NCBI RefSeq assembly: GCF_003334315.1
Contig: NZ_QOWR01000128.1
Direction: 5' to 3' (one strand)
Length of the DNA stretch: 887 bases
DNA from: Escherichia coli
GTDB taxonomy: Bacteria > Pseudomonadota > Gammaproteobacteria > Enterobacterales > Enterobacteriaceae
How positions within the stretch are numbered: position 1 is the stretch's first letter; each line of letters opens with the position of its first letter. A program made the translations under genes and the position numbers. This document shows positions 1 to 887 of this stretch, in pieces. The notes beneath the pieces are model-generated. The model was given only the letters and a program-made list of their open reading frames with translations, searched no databases and had not been told where the DNA came from.

Positions 1-887
1 CCCTCAGCATGTGGCCGGATAACCGTATCGCCCGTGACGCGCACTATCTTTACCGGTATGACCGTCACGGCAGGCTGACAGAGAAAACCGACCTCATCCC
101 GGAAGGGGTTATCCGCACGGATGATGAGCGGACTCACCGGTACCATTACGACAGTCAGCACCGGCTGGTGCACTACACGCGGACACAATATGAAGAGCCG
201 CTGGTCGAAAGTCGCTATCTTTACGACCCGCTGGGCCGCAGGGTGGCAAAACGGGTATGGCGGCGTGAACGGGACCTGACGGGCTGGATGTCGCTGTCAC
301 GGAAACCGCAAGTGACCTGGTACGGCTGGGACGGCGACCGGCTGACCACAATACAGAACGACAGAACCCGCATCCAGACGATTTATCAGCCGGGGAGCTT
401 CACGCCACTCATCAGAGTTGAAACCGCCACCGGTGAGCTGGCGAAAACGCAGCGCCGCAGCCTGGCGGATACCCTTCAGCAGTCCGGCGGCGAAGACGGT
501 GGCAGTGTGGTGTTCCCGCCGGTGCTGGTGCAGATGCTCGACCGGCTGGAAAGTGAAATCCTGGCTGACCGGGTGAGTGAGGAAAGCCGCCGCTGGCTGG
601 CATCGTGCGGCCTGACGGTGGAGCAGATGCAAAACCAGATGGACCCGGTGTACACGCCGGCGCGAAAAATCCACCTGTACCACTGCGACCATCGCGGCCT
701 GCCGCTGGCGCTTGTCAGCACGGAAGGGGCAACAGAATGGTGCGCAGAATACGATGAATGGGGCAACCTGCTGAATGAAGAGAACCCGCATCAGCTGCAG
801 CAGCTTATCCGCCTGCCGGGGCAGCAGTATGATGAGGAGTCCGGCCTGTATTACAACCGCCACCGCTATTATGACCCGCTGCAGGGG
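1..887 (+). CDS. rhs: Rhs-family (YD-repeat) core protein, internal fragment from the C-terminal part of the conserved core; partial at both ends (codon phase begins at base 3)
   Basis: Manual translation of frame 3 gives 295 codons with no stop: [295 protein letters not shown]. Frames 1 and 2 hit stops within the first 80 bases (tga at 76..78, taa at 20..22). Recurrent YxYDxxGRL-type YD repeats and the terminal [15 protein letters not shown] segment are hallmarks of Rhs core proteins. The paralog (rhsA/B/C/D-like) cannot be assigned from this conserved core, so the symbol is family-level only. Confidence 0.93.
51..83 (+). other. YD-repeat unit (protein-level motif) [11 protein letters not shown]
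   Basis: Codons 17-27 of frame 3 read [11 protein letters not shown], a near-perfect match to the Rhs/YD consensus YxYDxxGRL(T/I). Confidence 0.8.
141..176 (+). other. YD-repeat unit (protein-level motif) [12 protein letters not shown]
   Basis: Codons 47-58 read [12 protein letters not shown]; YxYD followed by a basic residue and Leu, a degenerate YD repeat. Confidence 0.7.
216..251 (+). other. YD-repeat unit (protein-level motif) [12 protein letters not shown]
   Basis: Codons 72-83 read [12 protein letters not shown]; YxYDxxGR core of the YD repeat. Confidence 0.75.
318..353 (+). other. YD-repeat unit (protein-level motif, degenerate) [12 protein letters not shown]
   Basis: Codons 106-117 read [12 protein letters not shown]; aromatic-x-aromatic-D-x-x-R-L-T pattern with W in place of Y. 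Confidence 0.6.
678..716 (+). other. YD-repeat unit (protein-level motif, degenerate) [13 protein letters not shown]
   Basis: Codons 226-238 read [13 protein letters not shown]; a YxxDxxG(L) variant of the repeat. Confidence 0.55.
747..773 (+). other. YD-repeat unit (protein-level motif, degenerate) EYDEWGNLL
   Basis: Codons 249-257 read E-Y-D-E-W-G-N-L-L; YDxxGxL core. Confidence 0.55.
828..887 (+). other. N-terminal part of the Rhs repeat-associated core domain ([20 protein letters not shown]), truncated by the window end
   Basis: Codons 276-295 read [20 protein letters not shown]. The G-L-Y-Y-x-x-x-R-Y-Y-D-P-x-x-G segment is the conserved opening of the domain that, in Rhs and TcC-type proteins, continues into the DPxGL motif and the autoproteolytic site separating core from variable tip. 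The rest of the domain is beyond base 887. Confidence 0.8.

Follow-up and report, generated by a model that had tools for sequence, protein, structure and literature searches.

The GC-rich core of an Escherichia coli rhs gene: probably a slowly ameliorating legacy of a GC-rich background

Results

The window lies in the core of a clade-I rhs gene

The DNA analyzed here is an 887-nt stretch of Escherichia coli (contig NZ_QOWR01000128.1), which is referred to at its full length as the window. It covers the 3' end (about 890 nt, or ~300 codons) of the conserved core in a clade-I (RhsA-B-C-F type) rhs gene, and our subject is the high GC content of this core. Several E. coli chromosomes match the window with 100% identity, among them NZ_CP091022.1, where it lies inside the coding sequence (CDS) L1O93_RS16405. 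In strain STEC276, it takes up codons 921-1215 of a 4,200-nt CDS whose 1399 codons specify an "RHS element core protein". The parent gene of STEC276 is located between kdpFABC-ybfA and ybfC, which is the rhsC locus of E. coli K-12 (kdp-ybfA-rhs-ybfC), and remnants of ISAs1 (H-rpt) transposase genes lie downstream of it. Among 5,426 complete E. coli genomes, 3,889 carry the window segment, nearly always on the chromosome and at a median of five places per genome.

A previous sequence-only reading of the window had identified it as an Rhs core, and comparison with protein family models bore this out. The window protein aligned with positions 935-1229 of the 1261-position NCBIfam profile NF041261 (RHS_core) with 629.6 bits (E = 1e-188). 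The full parent protein covered the profile from position 1 to 1261 and, with 2638.8 bits versus an equivalog cut-off of 2000, belongs to the family. It also belongs to the YD repeat family TIGR01643, with 137.6 bits in the parent and 32 bits in the window (cut-off 15.8), and the Pfam RHS_repeat model gave a weak match inside the window (E = 0.06). Towards the end of the window, Pfam PF03527 (RHS) matched amino acids (aa) 223-259 with E = 9e-15, and TIGR03696 matched aa 250-294 with 37.8 bits versus a cut-off of 32.5. The motif DPIGL, which marks the start of the junction between core and tip, begins at parent residue 1221, five codons beyond the window end. The parent protein thus carries the RHS repeat-associated core domain (TIGR03696/PF03527) together with a PxxxxDPxGL-type junction.

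The core is GC-rich relative to its host and to its own tip

The window contains 283 G, 259 C, 204 A, and 141 T. The resulting GC content of 542/887 (61.1%) agrees exactly with the earlier count. Frame +3 is free of stops and open from end to end over 295 codons, and the GC contents at the first, second, and third codon positions (GC1, GC2, and GC3) are 0.664, 0.427, and 0.739, respectively, in keeping with the strong third-position bias claimed before. In 200-nt windows, the GC content is roughly uniform (0.585-0.650). The most common codons are CTG (23), CAG (16), GAC (15), CCG (14), GAA (14), GGC (12), CGC (12), and CGG (12). The five codons previously named as dominant, CTG, CCG, CGC, GGC, and GAC, are indeed enriched, making up 25.8% of the 295 codons versus 16.0% in the flanking genes; the list was incomplete, however, as CAG, GAA, and CGG are equally prominent. 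An Rfam scan of the window returned just one chance match to a snoRNA (19 bits versus a gathering score of 47), and a repeat scan of the window found nothing beyond short chance repeats.

We then compared these values with those of the host. The 26 other intact genes of the 41-kb locus have a mean GC content of 0.521 (standard deviation [SD] 0.039, maximum 0.576) and a mean GC3 of 0.550 (SD 0.064, maximum 0.651), and in both measures the core ranks first in the locus. Without the Rhs region, the locus has a GC content of 51.1%, so that the host average near 51% assumed earlier holds locally and a host of about 60% GC or more, in which the composition would be unremarkable, does not apply. As a broader sample, we took 241 kb from five places on the same chromosome, divided into 887-bp windows, and 126 long open reading frames (ORFs) for GC3. 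The host windows have a mean GC content of 0.507 (SD 0.052), and 0.45% of them reach 0.611. The rhs window lies approximately +2.0 SD above the mean in GC and approximately +2.3 SD in GC3 (ORF mean 0.565, SD 0.076). Its composition is clearly atypical for the host to a moderate degree, not extreme, and not unique in the genome: every sampled host window with at least 61.1% GC falls in the fec operon island. The fecIRABCDE operon (L005:~18000-26000, corresponding to NZ_CP091022.1 4,218,000-4,226,000) has a GC3 of 0.68-0.71 and is surrounded by copies of IS3, IS66, IS30, and IS2. It is another GC-rich and probably mobile island of this chromosome.

The GC-richness ends with the core. The core has a GC content of 0.622 and a GC3 of 0.731 (1232 codons) versus 0.431 and 0.351, respectively, for the tip, and ybfC has a GC content of 0.367. 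The drop is abrupt and occurs immediately after the window, with a GC content of 0.61 in the final 90 nt and 0.43 in the following 90 nt. K-12 rhsA, rhsB, rhsC, and rhsD and two E. albertii genes have core GC contents of 0.60-0.64, and in the five of these genes in which the junction was located, the tip GC content is 0.33-0.42. The gene matches the composite structure defined by the Hill laboratory, namely, a GC-rich core of ~3.7 kb, an in-frame AT-rich extension, and small downstream ORFs (quoted in PMC7259588 and PMC2935791). For Serratia, a core with 67.7% GC and a tip with 46.4% GC have been described (Jackson et al. 2009, PMC2935791).

The E. coli core deviates from a cross-host trend

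Homologs were collected by exhaustive search, their contigs were retrieved, and the neighboring genes were curated; the contigs retrieved for P0137, P0149, and P0130 were too short to determine the host composition. The GC3 of the homologous cores ranges from 0.19-0.33 in AT-rich contexts up to 0.84-0.92 in GC-rich ones. This spread rules out that GC-richness is intrinsic to all Rhs cores. In seven independent lineages with curated neighbors, the GC3 of the core follows that of the neighboring genes with r = 0.98. The E. coli core exceeds this trend by 0.21, corresponding to 3.8 residual SD.

All relatives with at least 59% identity have a GC3 of 0.72-0.81, and the high GC3 is therefore a trait of the whole clade, including three E. 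coli subfamilies. The closest named relatives outside Escherichia among the matches listed belong to Pseudocitrobacter, with 76% amino acid identity and a GC3 of 0.74, and their host neighbors have a GC3 of ~0.63.

Two further observations were made on the homologs. In a GC-rich host with a neighbor GC3 of ~0.83 (L021:14434-18605), an Rhs gene with a TseH-family tip is accompanied by an Imm58 gene and a run of small unannotated ORFs, an arrangement that resembles an orphan tip/immunity array. The core of this gene has a GC3 of 0.92 and the tip one of 0.48, a larger contrast than in E. coli. A scan of genome contigs with peptide patterns yielded at least six loci. One of them is a 463-bp contig of low coverage (NZ_JAHZMO010000170.1, L010; coverage 0.79) in an assembly of Terrisporobacter petrolearius, which encodes a 92%-identical piece of this E. 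coli-type Rhs core and most likely represents contamination of that assembly.

The core loses GC at rates similar to those of neighboring host genes

To determine the direction of change, substitutions were polarized with outgroups. Among four E. coli A/B/C-type cores, polarized by the E. albertii ortholog, 78 GC-to-AT versus 41 AT-to-GC changes were counted. With two outgroup subfamilies as polarizer, the numbers were 23 versus 9 for the E. coli lineage and 56 versus 11 for the E. albertii lineage. A matched design considered third positions at the same locus in six E. coli strains, with E. albertii as the outgroup. The core showed 52 GC-to-AT versus 24 AT-to-GC changes (binomial P = 0.002), and the adjacent kdpD, kdpC, kdpB, and kdpA genes showed 85 versus 47; the two ratios were indistinguishable (Fisher P = 0.65). 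Calculated per available site, these changes imply an equilibrium GC3 of 0.53 (95% interval 0.40-0.64) for the core, versus the current 0.73, and of 0.45 (0.36-0.54) for the kdp genes, versus the current ~0.60. With a strict outgroup filter, the net loss of third-position GC3 since the split of E. coli and E. albertii amounts to ~0.01-0.02. Since the net flux is GC-to-AT and proceeds at kdp-like rates, we conclude that the core is under the ordinary substitution process of the host and is losing GC. The core thus shows two hallmarks of ameliorating DNA, a composition off that of the host and a net flux toward it. The matched test gives a small quantitative confirmation of amelioration at host-like rates, as opposed to a core that is kept at high GC.

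The same data bear on the alternative that the high GC3 is actively maintained, either by GC-biased gene conversion among the approximately five paralogous cores per genome or by selection on GC, and is not a relic. Paralogous cores are 97-99% identical, which implies ongoing conversion among the multiple copies, and the GC-richness is common to three subfamilies that are merely 73-78% identical in nucleotides. The implied equilibrium of the core also nominally exceeds the value for the kdp genes but is far below the present GC3, and the per-site rates are indistinguishable from those of host genes. In two GC-rich hosts, the cores lie ~0.09 above their neighbors in GC3, whereas the cores of the mid-GC hosts L016 and L017 are without enrichment (-0.01). 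Given the clear GC-to-AT flux, we consider active maintenance unlikely.

Expression level and amino acid content do not account for the bias

The codon adaptation index (CAI) was calculated with 24 K-12 ribosomal-protein and rpoA genes as the reference set. Values of 0.44 for the window and 0.435 for the core fall among those of weakly expressed neighbors (0.36-0.52) and far below those of the highly expressed rplM, rpsI, pta, ackA, fabB, mdh, and gltA (0.66-0.85). CGG accounts for 12 of the 33 arginine codons of the window, compared with 2 of 315 in the reference set, and ACG (9) and GGG (5), likewise rare in ribosomal proteins, are also heavily used. The GC2 of the window equals that of the flanking genes while its GC3 is ~0.19 higher, so the GC excess resides mostly at synonymous sites. 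It is therefore not a by-product of amino acid content or of selection for expression.

It is accordingly very improbable that the bias stems from translational selection in a highly expressed gene or from the richness of YD repeats in Gly, Arg, Asp, and Tyr. CTG, CCG, GGC, and GAC are common in E. coli genes too, and the GC1 of the window and the GC2 of the whole gene (0.483) are somewhat above the flank values. Translational selection is nevertheless ruled out by the low CAI and the use of rare codons, and amino acid composition by the flank-like GC2 of the window and by homologs in AT-rich hosts, which encode homologous proteins with AT-rich codons at the low GC3 values given above.

The near-open antisense frame is a consequence of codon usage

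The sequence-only reading had described the antisense strand as nearly stop-free and had explained this by the GC3 bias. The mechanism proved right, but the description applies only to the codon-aligned frame -1, which has a single stop; the other two antisense frames contain 16 and 8 stops. Stops in frame -1 arise solely from the sense codons TTA, CTA, and TCA, which occur 0, 0, and 1 times, respectively, among the 295 codons of the window. Recoding with the codon usage of the flanking genes gave an expectation of 6.2 ± 2.3 stops (P[≤1] = 0.006), and recoding with the core's own usage gave 3.3 ± 1.7 (P[≤1] = 0.14). Frame -1 is nearly open because the GC3-rich usage almost removes TTA, CTA, and TCA, and the GC3 bias largely accounts for it.

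That the 188-codon antisense ORF (Table 1) is a real overlapping minus-strand gene, with a composition shaped by dual coding, is scarcely credible: the ORF exists, and a single stop in 295 codons is improbable under host usage, but one stop is unremarkable under the core's own usage, NCBIfam yielded no match to the ORF even at E ≤ 1, other cores have similar long antisense ORFs at different positions, and whole cores carry 9-18 stops in frame -1, which leaves no long conserved antisense frame. An antisense gene at this position is thus ruled out.

Features of the window and its relation to solved Rhs structures

The features of the window are compiled in Table 1. Searches against the PDB matched window aa 3-143 to residues 864-984 of P. 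aeruginosa Tse5 (8cp6; E = 5e-25), and further solved relatives were the Rhs core of Salmonella bongori (8qjd), RhsA of P. protegens (7q97), and Tse15 of A. baumannii (8uxt). In solved Rhs homologs, the conserved C-terminal region winds into the cocoon of YD repeats and seals it, and it holds the aspartyl autoprotease that frees the toxin tip (PMC8765631). The window encodes the final strands of YD repeats in the Rhs beta-cocoon and the first part of the C-terminal plug/autoprotease region. The PDB matches fall in two stretches that leave out window aa ~144-220. These ~77 residues do not seem to be YD repeats and were missed by every match to solved Rhs structures. No other part of the window is as GC-rich as this segment, which is also less conserved among the Escherichia subfamilies; many columns of the A1 consensus are unresolved across it.

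Table 1. Features of the 887-nt window
Feature	Position (nt)	Strand	Remarks
ORF in frame +3	3..887	+	295 codons; codons 921-1215 of RHS element core protein; GC 61.1%, GC3 0.739
YD-repeat shell segment, window aa 3-143	9..431	+	alignable to beta-cocoon of solved Rhs effectors; TIGR01643
Segment without solved-homolog coverage, window aa 144-220	432..662	+	GC 0.658, GC3 0.805
Start of C-terminal "RHS repeat-associated core" region	669..884	+	PF03527, TIGR03696
Antisense ORF in frame -1, 188 codons	297..863	-	by-product of GC3 bias, no gene

Beyond the DPxGL-type junction, a variable AT-rich tip follows, presumably a toxin, and then the presumed immunity gene ybfC. Pfam contains no family for the tip (aa 1200-1399) or for YbfC. 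The gene arrangement fits a toxin-immunity module, and tip and ybfC are presumed to form one, a role deduced from the family only. The parent protein carries DUF6531 near its N-terminus. The best match to a PAAR domain was not credible (E = 0.2 over 19 residues), and no vgrG or type VI secretion system (T6SS) genes were found in the 41-kb locus, that is, within 20 kb of the gene, so that the protein falls outside the PAAR-Rhs effector class. The more distant homologs L016 and L017 adjoin T6SS or vgrG genes. Because a credible PAAR domain and nearby vgrG/T6SS genes are lacking, we classify the parent as an Rhs core protein and not as a demonstrated T6SS effector; any delivery route would be a presumptive one.

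At the junction, K-12 RhsA, RhsB, and RhsC have two DPxGL motifs that are 22 residues apart (DPIGL ... DPLGL). The second motif of the STEC276 protein is DSMGL (L001:20903-20983, parent aa 1221-1247). In STEC276, 98E11, C236-04A, and O8:H8, the tip and ybfC directly follow the full-length core. In K-12 and isolate 12, the same tip and ybfC are part of the orphan fragment ybfO further downstream. Positions 20500-22008 of the STEC276 locus (L001) and 7712-9220 of the K-12 locus (L015) are 99.9% identical over 1509 nt. From these alignments, the arrangement looks like recombination of the main core with an orphan core fragment, i.e., tip displacement, a known process.

The rhsC locus of some strains holds two copies of the window region, one within the full-length gene and the other within an orphan fragment. 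This was seen by comparing window positions 1-887 with L015:7213-8099 and L026:11872-12758, which are 98.8-98.9% identical to the window. In K-12, the orphan pseudogene ybfO has its left edge at L015:7221, a position within ~8 nt of the one that corresponds to the window start, and the window could therefore equally come from an orphan copy.

Discussion

We consider it probable, at roughly 0.8, that the GC-richness of the core is a legacy: the core lineage would come from a more GC-rich background than that of E. coli and would now be slowly ameliorating. It would have evolved in, or been acquired from, such a background and, in a genome of ~51% GC, would slowly shed GC through the ordinary mutation and fixation of the host. 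The foreign origin proposed in the sequence-only reading gains support from the disequilibrium relative to the cross-host trend and from the net GC-to-AT decay at host-like rates. "Foreign" is best understood here as the legacy of a GC-rich background and not as recent transfer, since composition alone can neither date nor prove a transfer; the GC-rich donor or ancestral background and its timing are what we infer. According to the part of PMC7259588 that cites Hill et al. 1994, E. coli Rhs elements consist of a GC-rich core of ~3.7 kb and an AT-rich extension and are believed to have been acquired from a high-GC organism. Jackson et al. 2009 (PMC2935791) instead regard rhs lineages as part of the core of enterobacterial genomes, in which they are often gained and lost. 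Both the combination of a GC-rich core with an AT-rich tip and the notion of a GC-rich origin already appear in publications of the early 1990s, and the feature is an ordinary one.

Several points weigh against the legacy interpretation. The anomaly amounts to just ~2 SD on the distribution of host windows. The cross-host trend is drawn from seven points, and for three of these there are just one or two neighbor genes each, and an automated version based on flanking ORFs gave r = 0.30, which is not significant; this version is noisy, with Escherichia-type loci dominating and AT-rich orphan-tip arrays being counted as flanks. For the core, the implied equilibrium GC3 (0.53) nominally exceeds the value for the kdp genes (0.45), with overlapping intervals. 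The substitution counts are not fully independent, because paralogs and alleles may include gene-conversion tracts. Composition and direction of substitution show disequilibrium and not a donor, and no candidate donor genome was found. Finally, Jackson et al. 2009 (PMC2935791) concluded that rhs lineages are ancient and mostly older than the Enterobacteriaceae, which is hard to square with a "recent" transfer. A GC-rich origin and an ancient lineage would be compatible, provided that "foreign" denotes a GC-rich legacy with slow amelioration.

As a doubtful addition to this legacy, GC-biased gene conversion among paralogous cores might partly prop up the GC-richness of the enteric clade-I cores. 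If true, such partial support would account for the GC3 of 0.72-0.81 that is still seen, despite long residence, in three subfamilies and in the copies of E. coli, E. albertii, and Pseudocitrobacter. For annotation, the analysis identifies the window as Rhs core, flags the long antisense ORF as a compositional artefact, and places the boundary between core and tip just past the window.

The concept of amelioration for compositionally atypical, horizontally acquired genes reportedly goes back to Lawrence and Ochman. Like such genes, the rhs core combines off-host GC and GC3 with a low CAI, nearby remnants of mobile elements, a patchy distribution among strains, and a flux toward the host composition. 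Most atypical islands of E. coli are AT-rich. The rhs core differs from these islands in being GC-rich and multicopy, with conversion among paralogs, and it belongs to a family argued to be ancient in enterics (PMC2935791).

With the solved T6SS Rhs effectors (Tse5, 8cp6; RhsA, 7q97; Tse15, 8uxt; and the S. bongori protein, 8qjd), the parent protein has in common the YD-repeat cocoon and, ahead of the autoproteolytic junction, the conserved C-terminal RHS-associated core. The sequence similarity is distant, however, and the parent protein differs from these effectors in having DUF6531, no credible PAAR domain, and no vgrG or T6SS genes within 20 kb.

The closest known systems are RhsA, RhsB, and RhsC of K-12 (RhsA-B-C-F subfamily; clade I of Jackson et al. 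2009), with the window being 98-99% identical in nucleotides to rhsA, rhsB, and rhsC. K-12 rhsC shares the kdp-ybfA-rhs locus, the GC-rich core, the AT-rich tip, and the downstream H-rpt/ISAs1 remnants. The best-matching strains differ from K-12 in that their full-length core is joined to the tip of the K-12 orphan ybfO, followed by ybfC, whereas the K-12 rhsC tip and ybfB are absent.

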